In this document: in pieces, positions 2,095-55,298 of the stretch | Position numbering within the stretch: the first letter of the stretch is position 1 | Layout: every line of letters begins with the position of its first letter | Origin: a virus | Taxonomy: Duplodnaviria > Heunggongvirae > Uroviricota > Caudoviricetes | DNA length: 64,000 bases | Virus record (IMG/VR): IMGVR_UViG_2565956624_000008 | Direction: 5' to 3' (one strand) | Notes under the pieces: generated by a model | The model's database searches: none | What the model saw: the letters and a program-made list of their open reading frames with translations, nothing else | What the model was told of the DNA's origin: nothing | Translations under genes and position numbers: made by a program

Positions 2095-3524
2095 TCCTCC
2101 TCATACGAAATATTAAAGGTGGAGTTTTCTGTATCCAGATAAACGAAATCGTAAAAGCCGTTGGACTCATTCCACTCGACAAATTCCAGATAAAAGTCGC
2201 GGAAATAACCCAGCGTTTCGATAAATGCCCAAACGTCTTTTTTCTTGATTAGGATGTACTTGCCGACACGGTTCGGATCAAAGAAAGTTGAGTCACGCCC
2301 AAATTTTGTTTCCAGTGCCGACTTCAGCTCATCAGTCACGTTCTCAATGGTCAGGCTTGCCGATATCCGCCCAGTGATAGTGATCTTAAAGGGGAGTTTT
2401 CTGACCTCTTTATACGAGAATTTCTTGTTCAACTCATTCGGCACCTTCTTAAAGGCAGCCAGGATCACTTCTTCAAGCTCTGACTGGCTTTTGTTTGGAT
2501 GCCATCCTGAAATAAATATCTTATTGATATTCCGAACATTATAAGCACCATCTAATTTCTCTTGCTGGCCTTCGCCCCATGCCTTTACCCAGGACAGTCC
2601 CGGGATGTTACGCACCAAAAAATACGTATAGTCCCCGCCCCATACGACCTGATCATCATAGGCAAGGTAATATTGTGCACGATTACGTGTGATCTCCGTT
2701 GTTTCGGCATCGGTACCTGCGGTTATGGGTGTCGTTGTCTTAACTGAAATCAAATTAGCTAAATTAGCCGCAGAATCGACAGGCGTCAGGTTTTGGCCAG
2801 CAACCAGGGTTATATCTCCGTTGGTGCACCATACCTTAAGTGTAATGGTCGAGCCTTCTGGCGGTATTTGCCCAATTAGCCCATCACCGAATCGAACCCC
2901 CAACTGCTCGGATGGCTTATAAAACTCAACGTAGACCTGGCTTTTACTACCGGCTAACCGGAACATAGTGCTGGAAGACCACTGCGTGGTCTTACCATCG
3001 GTCGTCACGAATACTTCCAGCTTATAGCAGACAGCAGTGAGAGCCTTTGATAACACGACTTCCAGAAATTCTTTGGCTGCCGTAACGGTATATGTCACCT
3101 CCTGGATTTCCAACTGTGCCACTTCTACCGTACCGGTGCCGTCAACCAACCTGCATACATCCATAGTCATGTAAGGGTACTGGTCGTCAGATATTAAAGG
3201 CATATTTTTGGGGATTACCGCTGGGGCATCTTCACTTGTGGCGGTGATCTCAATCATCCCCGATGACGGTGTTGGCTTGGTACCAACGTAACTATTCGTT
3301 TCTGCCGCTGCCAGGATAGAGGAACGCCGCGTCGCGGTCGATATAAAGCCTTCAGCCAGCGCCGCATCGGCATACTGAAAGCACCTGTAGACAATCTGGG
3401 TAATAAACAATGTCAGCATCGAGACAAATTGAGAGCCGACAAACTTCGACCAGAATGAATCTTTCTCGACAAGCTCTTCAAACTCTGCACGAATACTGTC
3501 TTTAGTCGGTGTTGTTTTACTCAT
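2091..3524 (-). CDS. Baseplate wedge protein (BplA-like)
   Basis: 477-aa ORF, translationally coupled to neighbours; position between the gpW-like gene and tail-fibre genes. Confidence 0.4.
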   Translation of the reverse strand: MSKTTPTKDSIRAEFEELVEKDSFWSKFVGSQFVSMLTLFITQIVYRCFQYADAALAEGFISTATRRSSILAAAETNSYVGTKPTPSSGMIEITATSEDAPAVIPKNMPLISDDQYPYMTMDVCRLVDGTGTVEVAQLEIQEVTYTVTAAKEFLEVVLSKALTAVCYKLEVFVTTDGKTTQWSSSTMFRLAGSKSQVYVEFYKPSEQLGVRFGDGLIGQIPPEGSTITLKVWCTNGDITLVAGQNLTPVDSAANLANLISVKTTTPITAGTDAETTEITRNRAQYYLAYDDQVVWGGDYTYFLVRNIPGLSWVKAWGEGQQEKLDGAYNVRNINKIFISGWHPNKSQSELEEVILAAFKKVPNELNKKFSYKEVRKLPFKITITGRISASLTIENVTDELKSALETKFGRDSTFFDPNRVGKYILIKKKDVWAFIETLGYFRDFYLEFVEWNESNGFYDFVYLDTENSTFNISYEEE

Positions 3525-3880
3525 AGCACCACGTCCTGTGTGATAGTTATATCCCTGATACGAATGGATATTTTCAACTTATCAAAAGCATCTCCCTCGG
3601 CTACTGACAAGCCAGAAATCGGTATGTCAGGTAAATCTACCGTCAGTTTTTGCAACAGCATTGCCTCAACCGCAATTTGAACATGCGACAAGTTGGTCGG
3701 TTCGTGTTTAAACAGCGGTAAAACATTGCCCCATGACGGATCTCCGTATACCTCACCCTGATAAGTGTTTAGCCACTCATATAAACGAGCGCCCCAGGCC
3801 TCCTCCTGGGACTCATACGTTTTTACGCCGGATAACTCCAGCGTCAGCAAAGGATCAATTTCGTTATTGTTGGCCATCAA
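3521..3880 (-). CDS. Small baseplate protein (PmgA / gpW-like position)
   Basis: 119-aa ORF whose start overlaps the sit stop (ATGA-type junction). Confidence 0.35.
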   Translation of the reverse strand: MMANNNEIDPLLTLELSGVKTYESQEEAWGARLYEWLNTYQGEVYGDPSWGNVLPLFKHEPTNLSHVQIAVEAMLLQKLTVDLPDIPISGLSVAEGDAFDKLKISIRIRDITITQDVVL

Positions 3881-11079: not shown

Positions 11080-11289
11080 GTATTTTTAAGTCGCGAATGC
11101 TATCTTTTCGCATCATGTTGACCTTTTAATCGTTCAGGCTTATAGTTCCGCCGTCGTAGCAAATTCTGCGACCGGGTTTAGCAGCCTGAATGATTGTGCG
11201 GACAGCCGCAGATATCCGATATTGCGGTATTTTTGTGTCCGTAAAACCGCGTTACGCCCAAATTATGGTGGGGCGTGATGGGGAGGCTT

Positions 11290-11393
11290 CGGCCTGCTGG
11301 TTTCACAATCGCCAGTCTGCTAACCCCGTCACGTCCTGCCACCTGTTTAGCAGCGGGTAGCAGGTTGTTAAACCTGATTGTGAGGCCGTAACT
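11290..11393 (+). ncRNA. c4: Expected location of the c4 antisense repressor RNA
   Basis: Placed only by synteny (directly upstream of icd-ant, downstream of Op51); no structure verified. Confidence 0.25.
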
Positions 11394-12813: not shown

Positions 12814-13614
12814 ATGCAACAAACATTCAATGCGGATATGAATATATCAAACCTTCATCAAAATGTCGATCCTTCAACCACTCTGCCTGTTATTTGTGGT
12901 GTTGAAATTACGACCGACCGAGCTGGCCGTTACAACCTTAATGCTCTACACAGAGCGAGCGGACTCGGTGCCCATAAAGCGCCAGCTCAATGGCTAAGAA
13001 CGCTGTCAGCTAAACAGCTCATCGAAGAGCTTGAAAAAGAAACTATGCAGAATTGCATAGTTTCGTTCGAAGGCCGTGGCGGCGGCACTTTTGCCCATGA
13101 ATTGCTCGCAGTGGAGTACGCAGGCTGGATTTCTCCCGCGTTTCGGCTGAAGGTAAACCAGACATTTATCGACTATCGAGCCGGAAGATTACAACCTGCT
13201 ATTCCGAAGAGCCTCCCAGAAGCTCTCCGTTTGGCTGCTGACCTGGCAGAGCAAAAGCAACGGCTGGAGCAAAAAATGCTGATGGATGCACCTAAAGTCG
13301 AATTCGCCGAACGCGTTGCTACCGCCAGCGGGGTTCTAATCGGCAACTATGCCAAAGTGCTCGGCCTGGGCCAAAACTATCTCTTCACCTGGTTGCGTGA
13401 TAACGGAATTCTGATCGCAACCGGTGAACGCAGGAACGTCCCCAAACAAGAATACATATCCCGTGGGTATTTCACCCTTAAAGAAACCGTGATCGATACA
13501 AGCAATGGAAGCAGGATTTCTTTCACGACTCGTATAACCGGCAAAGGTCAGCAGTGGCTGATGAAGCGATTGCTTGATGCTGGTGTGCTGGTACCTGTCG
13601 CGGCAACGCGCTAA
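12814..13614 (+). CDS. kilA: KilA (KilA-N plus antirepressor-type C-terminal domain)
   Basis: 266 aa; shares the C-terminal domain with Ant; precedes repL as in P1. Confidence 0.65.
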   Translation: MQQTFNADMNISNLHQNVDPSTTLPVICGVEITTDRAGRYNLNALHRASGLGAHKAPAQWLRTLSAKQLIEELEKETMQNCIVSFEGRGGGTFAHELLAVEYAGWISPAFRLKVNQTFIDYRAGRLQPAIPKSLPEALRLAADLAEQKQRLEQKMLMDAPKVEFAERVATASGVLIGNYAKVLGLGQNYLFTWLRDNGILIATGERRNVPKQEYISRGYFTLKETVIDTSNGSRISFTTRITGKGQQWLMKRLLDAGVLVPVAATR

Positions 13615-13643
13615 CAGACGTAGTAAGAACCACCAGCATTGTA

Positions 13644-14489
13644 ATGCTGGCTAAAGTCACTTTCCTGAGCTGTATAACGATGAGCGATTTTACTTTTTCT
13701 GGCTATGAATTGGCCTGCTTTGTAACACACTCCGGTCTATCCCGTAGCGCCGGGCATATCCTGTCGCAATGTGCAAATCTCGCGGCAACAACCAGTGAAT
13801 ACTTCATTCACAAGCCTCACCGCCTGATCGCGGCAGAAACTGGTTATAGCCAATCAACCGTCGTTCGTGCATTCCGTGAAGCTGTAAACAAAGGAATTCT
13901 GTCTGTAGAGATTGTTATCGGCGATCACCGTGAACGTCGCGCTAACCTGTACCGGTTTACACCATCCTTTTTGGCCTTCGCACAACAAGCCAAAAATGCG
14001 CTGATTGAAAGCAAATTAAAGATCTCTTCAGCGGCAACCAAGGTTAAAGCTGTTCTCGCTAAGACATTGGCTTTATTTAATTTTTTATCCACACCCCCAT
14101 GTCAAAATGATACCCCCTCCCCCTGTCAGGATGACGTGGCAATAAAGAATAAGAAGTCACAAGTTAAAAAAACAAAAAGATCAGTTTCCGGCGGTGCCGG
14201 AACGACCAGACTCAAAAAATTGACTTCATGGATCGCTGAGGCAAAAGCAAAGGCTGACAATCTGCGGTTATCCAAAAAACGCGCTCAAAAACATGAGTTC
14301 AAGCAGAAAGTAGAGGCGGCAGCGCGGAAATATGCTTACCTGAAGAACAAGCGTTCTCCTGATATTGGCGGGGTATCAAACTTCGATAATCTGCCGCATT
14401 GCATGACGGTAAACGAAGCTCTTAATGCGGTTTTAGCCAAAAATAAAGATAACGAACAATGGGGTATACCGGCAGGATTCAGAGGGTGA
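13644..14489 (+). CDS. repL: RepL lytic replication initiator
   Basis: 281-aa ORF directly after kilA under the same operator; basic C-terminal region; synteny with the P1 lytic replicon. Confidence 0.6.
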   Translation: MLAKVTFLSCITMSDFTFSGYELACFVTHSGLSRSAGHILSQCANLAATTSEYFIHKPHRLIAAETGYSQSTVVRAFREAVNKGILSVEIVIGDHRERRANLYRFTPSFLAFAQQAKNALIESKLKISSAATKVKAVLAKTLALFNFLSTPPCQNDTPSPCQDDVAIKNKKSQVKKTKRSVSGGAGTTRLKKLTSWIAEAKAKADNLRLSKKRAQKHEFKQKVEAAARKYAYLKNKRSPDIGGVSNFDNLPHCMTVNEALNAVLAKNKDNEQWGIPAGFRG

Positions 14490-14785
14490 TAGATTGCTCT
14501 AATCTGGAGTCACCTGGCGTTTTCAGTTTGAGGTCGGAGATGCAATCTGATTTTTTACAGTTAGCAATCGCTTTTGCAGGATATGTTTGTATTGGCTTCT
14601 GTGTATACATGATCAGCCGAAAAATGCTTGTCGATATCGACCGCAAAGAACAAGCAGAGAAGATCTTAGTATGGATTTTCTTTGGCGCGGTCTGGCCATT
14701 AGGGATCATGTTTGCTGCAACATTTCTTCTGATGTGGATATTCACCCTTCCAGGTGATTTCTATAGAAAAAAAGCCAGACATTGA
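14459..14785 (+). CDS. Small membrane protein (probable true start ~14540)
   Basis: Two hydrophobic segments (LAIAFAGYVCIGFCVYMI; ILVWIFFGAVWPLGIMFAATFLLMWIF). Confidence 0.3.
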   Translation: MGYTGRIQRVIDCSNLESPGVFSLRSEMQSDFLQLAIAFAGYVCIGFCVYMISRKMLVDIDRKEQAEKILVWIFFGAVWPLGIMFAATFLLMWIFTLPGDFYRKKARH

Positions 14786-14908
14786 TACAATCGTTGCGGG
14801 TGCTTGAGGCTATCTGCTTCAGGCATTACCCGAAAAGCAGATAGAAGAAAGCCCCAGATAACATTACGCGTCCTGCAAGACGCTTAACATTAATCTGAGG
14901 CCATATCT

Positions 14909-15115
14909 ATGCTTAGCATACGTAGATTAGCCTCTTACCGACCAAAAGGTCAAGGAGAAGCAGGCTATGAAGCAGCAAAAGGCGATGTTAATCGCCCTGA
15001 TCGTCATCTGTTTAACCGTCATAGTGACGGCACTGGTAACGAGGAAAGACCTCTGCGAGGTACGAATCCGAACCAGCCAGACGGAGGTCACTGTCTTCAC
15101 AGCCTACGAATCTGA
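14909..15115 (+). CDS. mok: Mok-like overlapping reading frame of the hok locus
   Basis: 68-aa ORF that overlaps hok in a different frame and ends inside it, the classic mok/hok arrangement. Confidence 0.45.
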   Translation: MLSIRRLASYRPKGQGEAGYEAAKGDVNRPDRHLFNRHSDGTGNEERPLRGTNPNQPDGGHCLHSLRI

Positions 15116-15122
15116 AAGGTAA
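14967..15122 (+). CDS. hok: Hok/Gef-family type I toxin
   Basis: 51-aa product MKQQKAMLIALIVICLTVIVTALVTRKDLCEVRIRTSQTEVTVFTAYESER: N-terminal TM helix plus the conserved Hok C-terminal pattern; below the ORF-track size cut-off. Confidence 0.8.
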   Translation: MKQQKAMLIALIVICLTVIVTALVTRKDLCEVRIRTSQTEVTVFTAYESER

Positions 15123-15195
15123 GAGACCTGGCGGGGAGAGATCTCCGCCACTCTTCGTGTGTCAGGTATCCTCAATGCACCCTTTCCTCTCCAAA

Positions 15196-15222
15196 TAAAA
15201 AAGCTCCCGAAGGAGCTTTAAA
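15196..15222. terminator. Intrinsic terminator between hok and the convergent late operon
   Basis: AGCTCC-CGAA-GGAGCT hairpin flanked by an A-run and a T-rich tract. Confidence 0.55.
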
Positions 15223-15238
15223 ATACAAGGGATTACTA

Positions 15239-15748
15239 TTAATCCCACTCAATCCAGTTGTAGACGATACGAAGTGACGGGCGCACAGCGGCAGTCACAT
15301 CTTCGGTACTAAAGTCGATTGCATCACTGTAGATTTTGCAGTCCAACATTTCAATTGTTGTAGCAGCTTTTGTCACAGCGTTAACCCCGGAAGATTTGGA
15401 TTCAGGGGTAGCAGCCATCGTGATATCAACATAGTCCTTCGCCGCAATGCGATCCTTGATGAACTGAAGAATATCGCCTTCGATAGTCTCCACGCACTGG
15501 ACCTGGATTTCCCCAGAGTTTCGAATTGGTCCGTGCTGGTTGAACTTCACACCATTCGGACCATAGTCCTCCACATCCTCGCGGGTCATTTCAGGAATTT
15601 GCGACGTGCGAACCAGTACGCTGATATCTTCATGGCCTGCAAAAGTGAGCTGGAATTCAGAAGATACCAGTCGTTCGCCTTTGGCCGCGTTGGCAGTATA
15701 GCGGCCCTTAATAAATTTACGGTTTCCCTTAGTGTTATTGTGCCCCAT
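15239..15748 (-). CDS. Putative tail tube-type structural protein
   Basis: 169-aa ORF at the distal end of the sheath-containing late operon; size and position only. Confidence 0.3.
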   Translation of the reverse strand: MGHNNTKGNRKFIKGRYTANAAKGERLVSSEFQLTFAGHEDISVLVRTSQIPEMTREDVEDYGPNGVKFNQHGPIRNSGEIQVQCVETIEGDILQFIKDRIAAKDYVDITMAATPESKSSGVNAVTKAATTIEMLDCKIYSDAIDFSTEDVTAAVRPSLRIVYNWIEWD

Positions 15749-15759
15749 ATAAAATCCTT

Positions 15760-16341
15760 TTACTGGAACGCCCGAACAATATCGGAGCTGTTATATATCG
15801 AAGAACCGGTCAACTGGAGGTTGACGGTGTTTTTCAGGAAATGCCCATTGCTGTCCCTGGGCGCATCGAGATCGAAACTTATGTCCTGGATAGCGACATC
15901 AATGATGTTGATCCGGCGACCAATGTTTAGCGTCACACGCTCCGGGATTCGACCACCAATACTGGCATCTTTAAGTTCCGGGCTAATCATCGCTGACAAT
16001 GCGGCGATAGCGCCTGAAACCTCCATGAATGGGTCAAACAAAGCGATGAAAGTTACTGGCAGCGTGAAAGTCGGCGGTGTTCCCCCCTCCCAAACCATTA
16101 AGCTGTTCCAACGGGCCACCGACGTTGTTTCAGTACCAACCTGCGCAAAACCACTGAAAGCACCAGCAACAGACCCCATGGACATACCGGTAAACGGCGC
16201 TTCCCAATTCTGGGCCATGTTCATTGCCGCCCCCTGGCTGATATATCCGGTAACCTGGTACTGAGAGTTCGTTAAAGTAACTTTCAGAAATGGTGATACA
16301 CCGTCAGCCTGGCTGTAAACCCCATAAGGTATAGGTGCCAT
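15760..16341 (-). CDS. Hypothetical late structural protein
   Basis: 193-aa ORF in the late operon. Confidence 0.3.
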   Translation of the reverse strand: MAPIPYGVYSQADGVSPFLKVTLTNSQYQVTGYISQGAAMNMAQNWEAPFTGMSMGSVAGAFSGFAQVGTETTSVARWNSLMVWEGGTPPTFTLPVTFIALFDPFMEVSGAIAALSAMISPELKDASIGGRIPERVTLNIGRRINIIDVAIQDISFDLDAPRDSNGHFLKNTVNLQLTGSSIYNSSDIVRAFQ

Positions 16342-16376
16342 TCAAGTTAAAGGCCGGAGTTCTCCGGCCTCCTCCT

Positions 16377-17189
16377 TTAGCCAAGGCGCTTACGGCGCAG
16401 TTTCATTGACTTTTTGCGGGCCAGTTTTGCCGCGCCGGTCTGGGCTTTACGACGTGCTTTTTTCAGCGCCGATTTTTGAGCCGCAGTCAGACGTTTTTTA
16501 CGCAGGCGTTTACGGATGAGTTTGATCTCACCGTTACGAACAACCTTCTTAAATGCTTCAGTCAGCATTTCATCAGAAGTGCCAGCAACAACAAACGCCG
16601 CTTCCAGTTCGTCACGGTCGTCGCTATCTAAACCAGCGATAGAGGCACCAACATCAGCAGCTGCGTCGTCGTCTTCATCGTCAGCCAGTGCTTCGATCAG
16701 GTCATCATCTACACCGCATGCTGCGAGGAAGTCAGCAACATTTGCCCATGCTTCGTTATAGGCATCGTCCTGTTCTTCTGTAACTTCGGAGTCGTCGTCG
16801 TCAGAGATACCAGCGATAGCCTGAACGAAACCATCAAGGGAGTCGAAAGTCAGATCACCGCTATCGGCCCAGGCGAAAACGGCATCGGCCGCATTACTCA
16901 ACGCATTCTGCATAGCACTTCGATTTGCAGCTTCCAGAATCATCTGGTGCGCCTGTTCGACGGTCCATTCTTTACCGTCTTTCCCTTCCAGGATTTGCTC
17001 AGGAGCCGGGTCAGATGGAACGTTATCGTTAGTCTGTGCCGCCGGTTCCGGATTATTAATAACCGGATCTGTTGGCGGTTCGGCGCTTGCTCGGGCAGAC
17101 TCCATCAGCTGCACAGGATCAGAGTTCAAAGCGAAACGAGACAGTCCATTCCCCAAAAATGCCCCGGATTGAAAAAAGTTTTTGCTCAT
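16377..17189 (-). CDS. Acidic protein with highly basic C-terminal tail
   Basis: Asp/Glu-rich centre; C-terminus KRLRKKRLTAAQKSALKKARRK...RRKRLG suggests nucleic-acid or scaffold interaction. Confidence 0.3.
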   Translation of the reverse strand: MSKNFFQSGAFLGNGLSRFALNSDPVQLMESARASAEPPTDPVINNPEPAAQTNDNVPSDPAPEQILEGKDGKEWTVEQAHQMILEAANRSAMQNALSNAADAVFAWADSGDLTFDSLDGFVQAIAGISDDDDSEVTEEQDDAYNEAWANVADFLAACGVDDDLIEALADDEDDDAAADVGASIAGLDSDDRDELEAAFVVAGTSDEMLTEAFKKVVRNGEIKLIRKRLRKKRLTAAQKSALKKARRKAQTGAAKLARKKSMKLRRKRLG

Positions 17190-54696: not shown

Positions 54697-54918
54697 ATGC
54701 AATCCATTAACTTCCGTACCGCGCGTGGCAACCTTTCTGAAGTGCTCAACAATGTTGAAGCCGGGGAAGAGGTTGAAATCACCCGCAGAGGCCGTGAGCC
54801 AGCAGTAATTGTCAGCAAGGCTACTTTCGAAGCCTACAAAAAAGCGGCGCTGGATGCTGAATTTGCATCCCTGTTTGACACCCTGGACTCCACCAACAAG
54901 GAACTGGTTAACCGATAA
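54697..54918 (+). CDS. phd: Phd antitoxin
   Basis: 73-aa product [49 protein letters not shown]... matches P1 Phd as recalled. Confidence 0.9.
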
Positions 54919-55298
54919 TGAGGCATATATCACCGGAAGAACTTATTGCGCTTCATGATGCGAATATAAACCGCTACGGCGGCCTGCCGGGAATGTCTGA
55001 TCCGGGTAGGGCAGAGGCCATTATCGGGAGAGTTCAGGCCAGAGTTGCCTACGAAGAGATCACCGACCTTTTCGAAGTCTCCGCCACCTACCTGGTGGCT
55101 ACGGCGAGAGGGCATATATTCAATGATGCCAATAAGCGTACCGCGCTAAACAGTGCGCTGTTATTTCTACGCCGTAACGGGGTGCAGGTATTTGATTCAC
55201 CTGAACTGGCAGACCTTACCGTAGGGGCTGCGACTGGCGAGATATCTGTATCTTCTGTCGCCGCCACGTTACGTAGATTGTATGGTTCTGCGGAGTAG
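54918..55298 (+). CDS. doc: Doc toxin (Fic-fold kinase)
   Basis: 126 aa, start overlapping the phd stop (TAATG); Fic-like [11 protein letters not shown] motif. Confidence 0.9.

Follow-up and report, generated by a model that had tools for sequence, protein, structure and literature searches.

What does a P1-like phage-plasmid that already encodes the Phd-Doc addiction module gain from a second toxin gene, of a different type, lodged between its lytic replicon and its late genes? The question is raised by a 64,000-nucleotide stretch of viral DNA (IMG/VR record IMGVR_UViG_2565956624_000008; this whole stretch is called the window below), in which an earlier note had remarked on a hok/mok type I toxin locus at 14880-15230. 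Every regulatory RNA element defined for hok/sok on plasmid R1 is present at positions 14764-15182, and this observation is real and far beyond chance. The reading we consider likely is that a complete cassette of the HokD/HokW type occupies 14764-15219, as cargo that a P1-like phage-plasmid bears in its variable region 5 and that provides rapid post-segregational killing beside Phd-Doc.

The toxin gene is intact. The hok open reading frame (ORF), at 14967-15122 on the plus strand, is unbroken in the ORF list, encodes the 51-aa product MKQQKAMLIALIVICLTVIVTALVTRKDLCEVRIRTSQTEVTVFTAYESER, and is preceded by a Shine-Dalgarno (SD) sequence, AAGGAG, at 14952-14957. This product matches Pfam PF01848 (HOK_GEF) along the full profile, positions 1-42 of 42, scoring 73.1 bits where the cutoff is 22 (E=1.3e-20); its match to phrog_251 (‘MokW-like host killing’) stands at 4e-31. 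It is identical to HokD-type proteins at 47 of 51 residues, to HokW at 46 and to the Hok of R1 at 27, and it ends in TVFTAYESER, a C-terminus that only the P1-like variant has. The 68-aa mok frame overlaps it on the same strand (14909-15115), ending 7 nt before the hok stop; this frame is likewise open throughout, matches phrog_37205 at 7.9e-24, and occupies the relative position at which mok is annotated in the Rac and 933W loci. Its SD, GAGG at 14897-14900, lies 8 nt upstream of the mok ATG and is invariant across the 35 loci aligned below. In the equivalent R1 motif, the substitutions G105T and A106G/T abolish toxicity (PMC9841398). The 51-aa Hok-family toxin and overlapping mok frame described in the earlier note are therefore both uninterrupted, and a frameshifted or pseudogenised hok can be ruled out, as both frames are open at full length and the sok and mok partner elements are in place.

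For the messenger RNA, we drew the family-defining elements from work on R1, in the summary given by Le Rhun et al. (PMC9841398), and tested each in turn. A promoter scan places the plus-strand hok promoter at 14764-14791 (TAGAAA, a 16-nt spacer and TACAAT, with a TG extension at 14783-14784), its -10 box being homologous in position to TAGAAT of the Rac and 933W loci. The Rfam model RF01794 begins 7 nt 3' of this promoter, which puts +1 at G14798, model position 1, and gives an inferred full-length mRNA body of 385 nt on the plus strand (14798-15182, to the end of fbi), from which transcription probably runs on to a hairpin at 15200-15219. RF01794 aligns to 14798-14972 on the plus strand from its first to its last position (114.9 bits, gathering score 59, E=2e-25), and its consensus structure is that of the hok mRNA leader on the hok strand, with the tac/ucb stem, the sokT hairpin and the mok-SD/dcb stem; relative to this consensus, the sokT hairpin of the window carries a 16-nt GC-rich extension. 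We note in passing that RF01794, named ‘sok antitoxin’, matches the sense strand, so that a genome annotation built on it would misplace ‘sok’ in both strand and extent. The plus-strand ‘sok’ match was considered as a possible strand error and rejected, since the model represents the hok leader, and the matches to CRISPR-DR46, ceN48, STnc130, sbrA and a minus-strand ‘sok’ (21 bits) were dismissed as falling far under their gathering scores.

The remaining elements of the transcript, all on the plus strand, follow in the order known from R1. The partner of the 5'-terminal tac (14798-14809) changes with the state of the RNA: it is fbi at full length, ucb once the form is open, and nt 20-34 while the transcript is nascent. 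The anti-SD sequence GCCCCAG of ucb (14851-14857) sequesters the mok SD in the closed form, and dcb (GCCTC, 14930-14934) pairs with the same SD in the open, translatable form, as seen in the fold of the first 140 nt. Beyond the hok stop stand a 3' stem-loop with a 9-bp GC-rich stem, which folds as expected of the protective structure of the processed mRNA (15129-15150), and fbi, CCTCAATGCACCC (15170-15182), which is complementary to tac. The R1 counterpart of this stem-loop is required for toxicity and protects the processed mRNA (PMC9841398). Folding of 14798-15183 yields minimum free energy (MFE) and centroid structures that both pair tac (nt 1-12) with fbi (nt 373-385) at a probability of 1.00 and ucb (nt 54-60) with the mok SD region (nt 98-104) at 0.99, and the MFE of the full-length RNA, -156.6 kcal/mol, corresponds to z = -8.76 relative to dinucleotide shuffles. 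In nascent transcripts of 40-50 nt a metastable tac hairpin forms, and the first 140 nt, folded by themselves, take up the open form (tac/ucb with SD/dcb). Forcing the open form costs 17.4 kcal/mol with fbi and 2.6 kcal/mol after removal of the last 33 nt, and because the penalty drops in this way fbi can be regarded as the lock. A flip of the MFE structure to the open form, which had been expected on in-silico truncation, did not occur; it was the energy gap alone that collapsed. The earlier note correctly saw a locus at 14880-15230, but drew its start too far to the right: the unit begins at the promoter and at +1, and a start at 14880 leaves out the promoter, tac, ucb and half of sok.

The antisense partner can be placed with similar detail. 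Carrying over the annotated coordinates of sokW from phage 933W, and aligning with sokW, Rac and R1-type promoters, we assign a predicted 71-nt Sok RNA to the minus strand, running from G14917 to 14847. Its promoter, at 14924-14953 on the minus strand, consists of a -35 TTGACC (14953-14948), an 18-nt spacer and a -10 TAATCT (14929-14924); it overlaps the hok SD and abuts dcb. Promoter, start site and body all align position for position with sokW, which starts at a G six bases past its -10 TAACCT, just as G14917 lies six bases past TAATCT, and the -35 box and spacer are identical to those of the Rac prophage copy. In the predicted fold (-29.1 kcal/mol, z = -4.78), a single-stranded leader of 15 nt at the 5' end is followed by a long hairpin and then by a tail rich in U. 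The expectation that sok would lie on the opposite strand is upheld; the span foreseen for it, 14880-14970, holds the promoter and the 5' half of the RNA only. Through alignment, folding and covariation, the sok promoter and the fbi, tac and ucb elements could thus all be located.

The pairings on which this model rests are conserved well beyond the window. We gathered hok loci from phages, plasmids and 47 genomic loci, and sought a partner for the 5' end about 340-400 nt downstream. A tac partner at the equivalent distance was recovered in 36 loci with compensatory differences, GGGUGC...GCACCC in Escherichia against GGGCGC...GCGCCC in Photorhabdus, and likewise GAGG...CCUC against GAGA...UCUC. 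Alignment A1 comprises 35 sequences, from Escherichia, Photorhabdus, Pantoea, Citrobacter, Kluyvera and one R1-like plasmid, and all family-wide figures refer to these; in its tac/fbi columns 4/418, UA occurs in 21 sequences and CG in 12. The key helices of the closed form are paired in 89.0% of cells, against 40-52% with the partners slid, and contain 9 compensatory pairs. For the open 5' structure the corresponding figures are 89.6%, 36-50% and 13. Both structures were derived from the window sequence and are favoured in the slide control on that account, a bias from which the compensatory pairs are free. Taken singly, the ucb/SD helix is paired at 90.5%, with compensatory change at 3 pairs, the 3' stem-loop at 86.9%, again with compensatory changes, and the SD/dcb helix at 100%, yet it is invariant. 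The window copy matches the family consensus at each element.

Against this conserved scaffold, the recognition leader of Sok varies. From one HokD-type locus to another the hairpin body of Sok keeps 87-92% identity, while the 15-nt 5' leader (14903-14917 in the window) is identical at 9-13 of 15 positions. Predicted leader duplexes between types are mostly -16 to -18 kcal/mol, compared with -32.1 kcal/mol for the cognate pair, the exceptions being the Rac type (-27.5) and locus L035 (-25.9). A variable leader on a conserved body is the pattern that would be expected if co-resident hok/sok copies diversify against cross-talk.

How did such a cassette come to sit in a P1-like genome? The window is that of a P1-like phage-plasmid, with kilA-repL, the late genes bplB-pmgG-21 and phd-doc, and a C4 antisense RNA with a1/b1 targets together with three tRNA genes (11140-11346 and 31336-33562; Rfam) confirms this identity. 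As the earlier note had it, the locus lies between the lytic replicon (repL, 13644-14489) and the late operon (bplB, 15239-15748 on the minus strand, and pmgG); RepL and BplB themselves have no Pfam or NCBIfam match. By BLAST, the window resembles P1 and P7 as far as 14503, a point 14 bp beyond the stop of repL, and does so again from 15197, giving sharp breakpoints at 14503/14504 and 15196/15197. In place of the intervening 693 bp (14504-15196, orf81 plus hok/sok), P1 has 1826 bp, and there is no residual similarity between the two contents. The slot holds rlfA-rlfB-pmgF in P1 and the orthologues rapA-rapB-upf52.1 in P7. The view that hok is foreign to canonical P1 proved accurate, as reference P1 (NC_005856, AF234172/3), laboratory P1 (OP279344) and P7 are all without the locus, but the suggestion of an acquired insertion needs amending: a simple insertion is ruled out, since 1826 bp of P1 are missing, and the arrangement is a replacement. 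The slot keeps its borders in both arrangements, with the core of the Orlf operator after repL on the left and a hairpin after bplB on the right, around three genes in P1 and P7 and around orf81 and hok/sok here. At the left breakpoint, 14493-14503 on the plus strand retains ATTGCTCTAAT, the first 11 bp of the P1 C1 operator Orlf/Op55 (annotated at 1794-1810 of record L002). No further C1 operator was found in 13000-16400 at up to 4 mismatches to a consensus from which P1's own Orlf deviates by 5. Similarity to lambdoid hok loci (Rac 91%, hokW 88%) spans 14786/14795-15182, that is, from the -10 box to fbi.

Zhang et al. (2022, PMC9603915) count rlfA-rlfB-pmgF, as variable region 5, among eight regions that are hypervariable in P1-like phage-plasmids, and the repL-bplB junction has at least 4 alternative contents. 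The word hok occurs 0 times in that paper, and our literature search, in which variable region 5 is named and its contents are not described, turned up no paper on a hok cassette in P1-like phage-plasmids, those containing both terms being concerned with the hok of other plasmids. Decayed hok-leader remnants in RCS47 and SJ46 show that, on sequence grounds, the hok module is old in the P1-like lineage.

The right breakpoint bears on how the transcript ends. It falls at the first base of the hairpin segment AAAAAAGCTCCCGAAGGAGCTTT, common to the window, P1, RCS47 and SJ46, and the hairpin itself, AAAGCTCC-CGAA-GGAGCTTT at 15200-15219, is shared by P1, RCS47 and SJ46 and lies between bplB and pmgF in P1. 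A terminator scan scores it on the minus strand, as a strong terminator for the bplB strand; the hok strand carries a UUU tail only. As 15197 is exactly where homology with P1, RCS47 and SJ46 sets in again, and as the score is on the minus strand, we reject the hairpin as part of the hok module. The strong downstream terminator of the earlier note is thus real as a hairpin, but one that is part of the P1 backbone and faces mainly the other strand; for hok it is a borrowed terminator, of uncertain efficiency.

The first half of the replacement is orf81 (14540-14785, plus strand), which encodes a hydrophobic protein of 81 aa. It contains two hydrophobic segments, and sister plasmids have it annotated as a hypothetical protein. 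It matches phrog_3772 over its full length (1-81 of 81, 5.2e-54) and has no Pfam, NCBIfam or PADLOC match. In the phage collection orf81 is confined to P1-like phages, always just upstream of hok or of a remnant, with a 44%-identical homolog in SJ46. Because the Orlf core is kept at 14493-14503, the C1-controlled lytic operon may be what drives orf81 expression. A weak terminator-like hairpin, TCACCCTTCCAGGTGA then TTTCTATAGA, lies on the plus strand at 14742-14757, within the 3' end of orf81 and upstream of the hok promoter; it is the sole candidate insulator between the lytic operon and hok/sok.

The relative against which the cassette can best be judged is hokW-sokW of the Stx2 prophage Sp5 and of 933W, the closest one to have been studied by experiment. 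The two belong to the same clade (88% nucleotide identity over the ~390-nt unit) and share the order of promoter, tac, ucb, sokT, mok, dcb, hok, 3' hairpin and fbi, the length and start of Sok, and carriage by a temperate phage. They differ in that Sp5 and 933W are integrated lambdoid elements whereas the window is a plasmid prophage, in that the window lacks the native terminator and has the P1 backbone hairpin instead, and in the Sok leader, which differs at 5 of 15 positions and is predicted to form a leader duplex of -16.2 kcal/mol, as opposed to -32.1 kcal/mol for the cognate pair, such that the two are probably not cross-reactive. In Sp5, HokW is toxic, sokW transcribed from its own promoter neutralises it, and mutation of that promoter abolishes the protection (Takada et al. 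2021, PMC8621323).

The same work gives the main rival to an addiction role, and a serious one: that the cassette is an accessory lysis or release factor, in which Sok vanishes on induction and Hok speeds lysis and raises phage yield. When Sp5 is induced, sokW RNA disappears in a RecA-dependent manner, HokW is made before holin and endolysin, about 1 h ahead of the latter, and deletion of the locus delays growth arrest by about 40 min and halves phage release (PMC8621323). HokD-type loci are typically prophage-borne, and the cassette of the window follows immediately downstream of the C1-repressed lytic operon kilA-repL, in the same orientation, with only the weak hairpin at 14742-14757 between. 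Nevertheless, a lysis role in P1-like phages rests on analogy with Sp5, where the effect is just ~2-fold, and canonical P1 and P7 lyse normally without the cassette, which is moreover disrupted in many P1-like plasmids. We regard it as unlikely that lysis is what the cassette is for, while noting that such a role is compatible with addiction. A more specific version holds that the placement is itself functional, with induction read-through from kilA-repL(-orf81) meeting the sok promoter (14953 to 14924) head-on and silencing it by transcriptional interference, whereupon Sok would decay and Hok be freed as a lysis factor. This appears improbable to us; if true, it would supply a mechanism for the unexplained loss of sokW RNA on Sp5 induction, and would give one cassette two roles, addiction as a plasmid and lysis help as a phage.

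Comparison with R1 hok/sok (parB) leads back to post-segregational killing. The tac/fbi, ucb/SD and SD/dcb pairings, the metastable hairpin and the 3' stem-loop fold alike in both, the Sok promoter overlaps the dcb region in both, and both are found on a low-copy plasmid host, where addiction is useful. The differences lie in sequence: beyond the divergent Hok, the sok spacer is 17 nt in R1 and 18 in the window, and at the nucleotide level BLAST does not match the cassette to IncF R1-type loci, its blastn matches among plasmids being HokD-type. Of the HokD-type loci on the chromosomes or prophages of E. coli (Rac, Qin), that of Rac shares 91% nucleotide identity, and the HokD-type protein to which Hok is identical at 47 of 51 residues is the one found in Rac-type prophages. 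Pedersen and Gerdes are said to have found, in 1999, that hokD of K-12 lacks sok and the upstream regulatory elements and that several K-12 hok loci are inactivated by insertion sequences (IS). Set beside K-12 hokD (relF), the window copy is complete.

The second module is equally well preserved. The genes phd (54697-54918; TIGR01552, 48.1 bits against a cutoff of 20.8) and doc (54918-55298; TIGR01550 DOC_P1, 129.8 bits against 38.65) lie on the plus strand, with phrog_375 and phrog_577 matches for phd-doc, and the coexistence that the earlier note had pointed out holds, both genes being intact, above their NCBIfam cutoffs and in overlapping order. By homology to R1 hok/sok and to hokW-sokW of Sp5, we propose that the weak constitutive promoter would yield a stable hok mRNA of 385 nt or more, which would be locked by tac/fbi end pairing, ucb thereby masking the ribosome-binding site of mok. 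As the 3' end is slowly trimmed to the hairpin at 15129-15150, fbi would be stripped off and the open form (tac/ucb with SD/dcb) would become accessible. As long as the plasmid is present, the short-lived 71-nt Sok would pair with the open mRNA and bring about its destruction; once the sok template is lost or silenced, translation of Mok would drive that of Hok, and the 51-aa membrane peptide would kill the cell. For a plasmid prophage held at one copy, this rapid killing of segregants would add to the slower action of Phd-Doc. Experiments on the prototypes agree with such a division of labor. From their native loci, R1 hok-sok and P1 phd-doc both kill plasmid-free segregants, with segregant survival of 1.5e-2 and 6.4e-4, respectively, and growth arrest by Hok sets in ~30 min after plasmid loss, while type II systems take hours (Fraikin and Van Melderen, PMC10899753). 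We infer from these parallels that the two modules act as two post-segregational killing systems, as proposed in the earlier note, and that Hok and Doc may be complementary in kinetics; expression, RNA processing, toxicity and a stabilising effect of this particular copy would follow by the same analogy.

An unstable antisense RNA coupled to a stable toxin mRNA would also suit a sensor of transcription shut-off, and this is the basis of another rival, anti-phage exclusion, in which a lytic invader shuts off transcription of host or plasmid, Sok decays, and Hok kills the cell before the phage matures, to the benefit of the remaining lysogens. P1-like plasmids are present at about one copy per cell. 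The R1 effect, as it is cited in PMC8621323, is a 42% reduction in T4 plating efficiency and a reduction of ~85% in plaque size with hok-sok on a high-copy plasmid; it was weak and needed a high copy number. Neither Hok nor orf81 matches a PADLOC model, and the region is not recognisable as a defense island. Exclusion is among the weaker rivals, and we think it very unlikely.

Whether the cassette is kept for any benefit at all is best asked of its relatives. The 1.1-kb junction (14300-15400) occurs in one piece in 216 PLSDB plasmids, 707 PLSDB records matching at least part of it, and in 199 of 5426 complete E. coli genomes, and across these 216 plasmids and 199 genomes the intact junction is kept at 99% identity or above. 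At least 80% of the hok locus is found in 449 plasmids, where it is labelled ‘type I toxin-antitoxin system toxin HokD’, and in the phage collection the cassette is present in vB_EcoM-Ro157c2YLVW, phi456 and three infant-gut records named P1 or Punavirus P1, in one of which the ORF bears the label ‘MokW’. The cassette is therefore already known at the level of annotation (HokD/MokW) and is the commonest content of the junction in sequenced P1-like plasmids. Among the P1-like records examined, the only ‘MokW’ label (MH422554) was placed on the 156-bp hok ORF, and sok, mok and the RNA elements are not correctly annotated. Near-identical E. coli-type hok sequences also turn up on tiny contigs assigned to Acinetobacter idrijaensis (275 bp) and Xanthomonas pisi (431 bp) and in the Actinobacillus phage vB_Apl-pPE4; these likely reflect assembly contamination or a mis-assigned host and not a real distribution.

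Damaged versions take several forms. IS421, of the IS4 family, is inserted at 15134-15143, inside the protective 3' hairpin, cutting hok off from fbi; to judge from the 3'-stem mutants of R1, such an insertion probably inactivates the locus. One example is CP099239.1 (6358/7698), where the 10-bp GGGAGAGATC stands on both flanks of the IS. The 5' remnants retain orf81, the hok promoter and the leader up to ~14930, hok being replaced by a 198-aa minus-strand gene that has no Pfam or PADLOC match. Hok-less variants include those of pF1140-3 (3501-3647), pM505-b, RCS47 (3158-3417) and SJ46 (2598-2850). The 3' remnants keep 15134-15196 alone. On the minus strand of the hok-less remnants, TTGCTC, 18 nt and TAATCT are followed by the Sok body; in the RCS47 remnant the elements are point-mutated, the mok SD region having changed from CTGAGGCC to CCGGGGCC. 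These remnants may be orphan Sok antitoxins, letting plasmids displace hok-positive competitors without killing of the host, and the frequent IS421 insertions together with sok-retaining remnants suggest an ongoing conflict over the cassette.

The same damage could be read as the decay of a selfish or neutral passenger, hard to lose or hitch-hiking in a recombination hot spot without net benefit. In its favor, the junction is a published hypervariable region with several alternative contents, and disrupted or remnant copies, including the point-mutated one of RCS47, are frequent. Against this stand the integrity of every element in the window, the conservation at 99% or above of the 1.1-kb junction in hundreds of independent isolates from humans, animals and food, and the conserved non-coding pairings, which argue for purifying selection on function. 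We hold the passenger explanation, which is again one of the weaker rivals, to be rather improbable.

Several observations do weigh against an active post-segregational killer, and the first comes from these sister plasmids. Class frequencies, extrapolated from 40 evenly spaced plasmids of the 631 that match, are ~35% intact, ~27% interrupted by IS421, ~20% with the 5' remnant only and ~5% with the 3' remnant only; the cassette is dispensable, because plasmids with disrupted or shortened copies are roughly as many as those with intact ones. Then there is the protein. Hok of the window has S37 and T42 at positions usually occupied by G37 and A42. S37 (codon AGC, 15075) differs from all 44 other Hok proteins compared, which mostly have G and in a few cases D or A, and it is absent even from the P1-like-type contigs L014 and L015, with both of which the window shares T42 (ACT, 15090). 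The R1 equivalents, G38 and A43, are not mentioned in the main text of the saturation-mutagenesis paper (PMC9841398). Hok also falls below the cutoffs of two NCBIfam models, the subfamily NF007279 (46.5 bits against 73) and the HokA equivalog NF007290 (36 against 89), and the HokD name on sister proteins in RefSeq and PLSDB probably rests on a rule other than these.

The RNA level contributes further reservations. After truncation, the nearest-neighbor model still keeps the closed form slightly favored, by the 2.6 kcal/mol given above. A simple consensus promoter scan called no minus-strand sok promoter, which was found by alignment to sokW, Rac and R1-type promoters; the scan missed it because its -10 TAATCT matches the consensus at just 3 of 6 positions, and its spacer is 18 nt long. 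The sokW promoter, with the equally weak -10 TAACCT, is functional by experiment (PMC8621323). The window has no Rho-independent terminator of its own, where most hok relatives have one (a GC hairpin and U-run) 6-25 nt past fbi, and relies on the backbone hairpin 15 nt past fbi, with a poor U-tail on the hok strand. Lastly, partial matches to the junction query, of lower identity and for the most part chromosomal, are present in 4747 of the 5426 E. coli genomes, and Sok RNAs from such resident loci, especially of the Rac type, might neutralise this hok mRNA and partly protect cured cells.

On balance, the finding is correct and the interpretation of the earlier note is essentially right: a well-understood system in a common context, and one that was already labelled. 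Unlike textbook P1, most of the P1-like phage-plasmids sequenced carry this type I killer module beside phd-doc, which is relevant to the stable inheritance of P1-like elements, increasingly seen with extended-spectrum beta-lactamase (ESBL) and other resistance genes. Curing such plasmids would mean contending with two toxins of different kinetics, as the experiments on the R1 and P1 modules imply.

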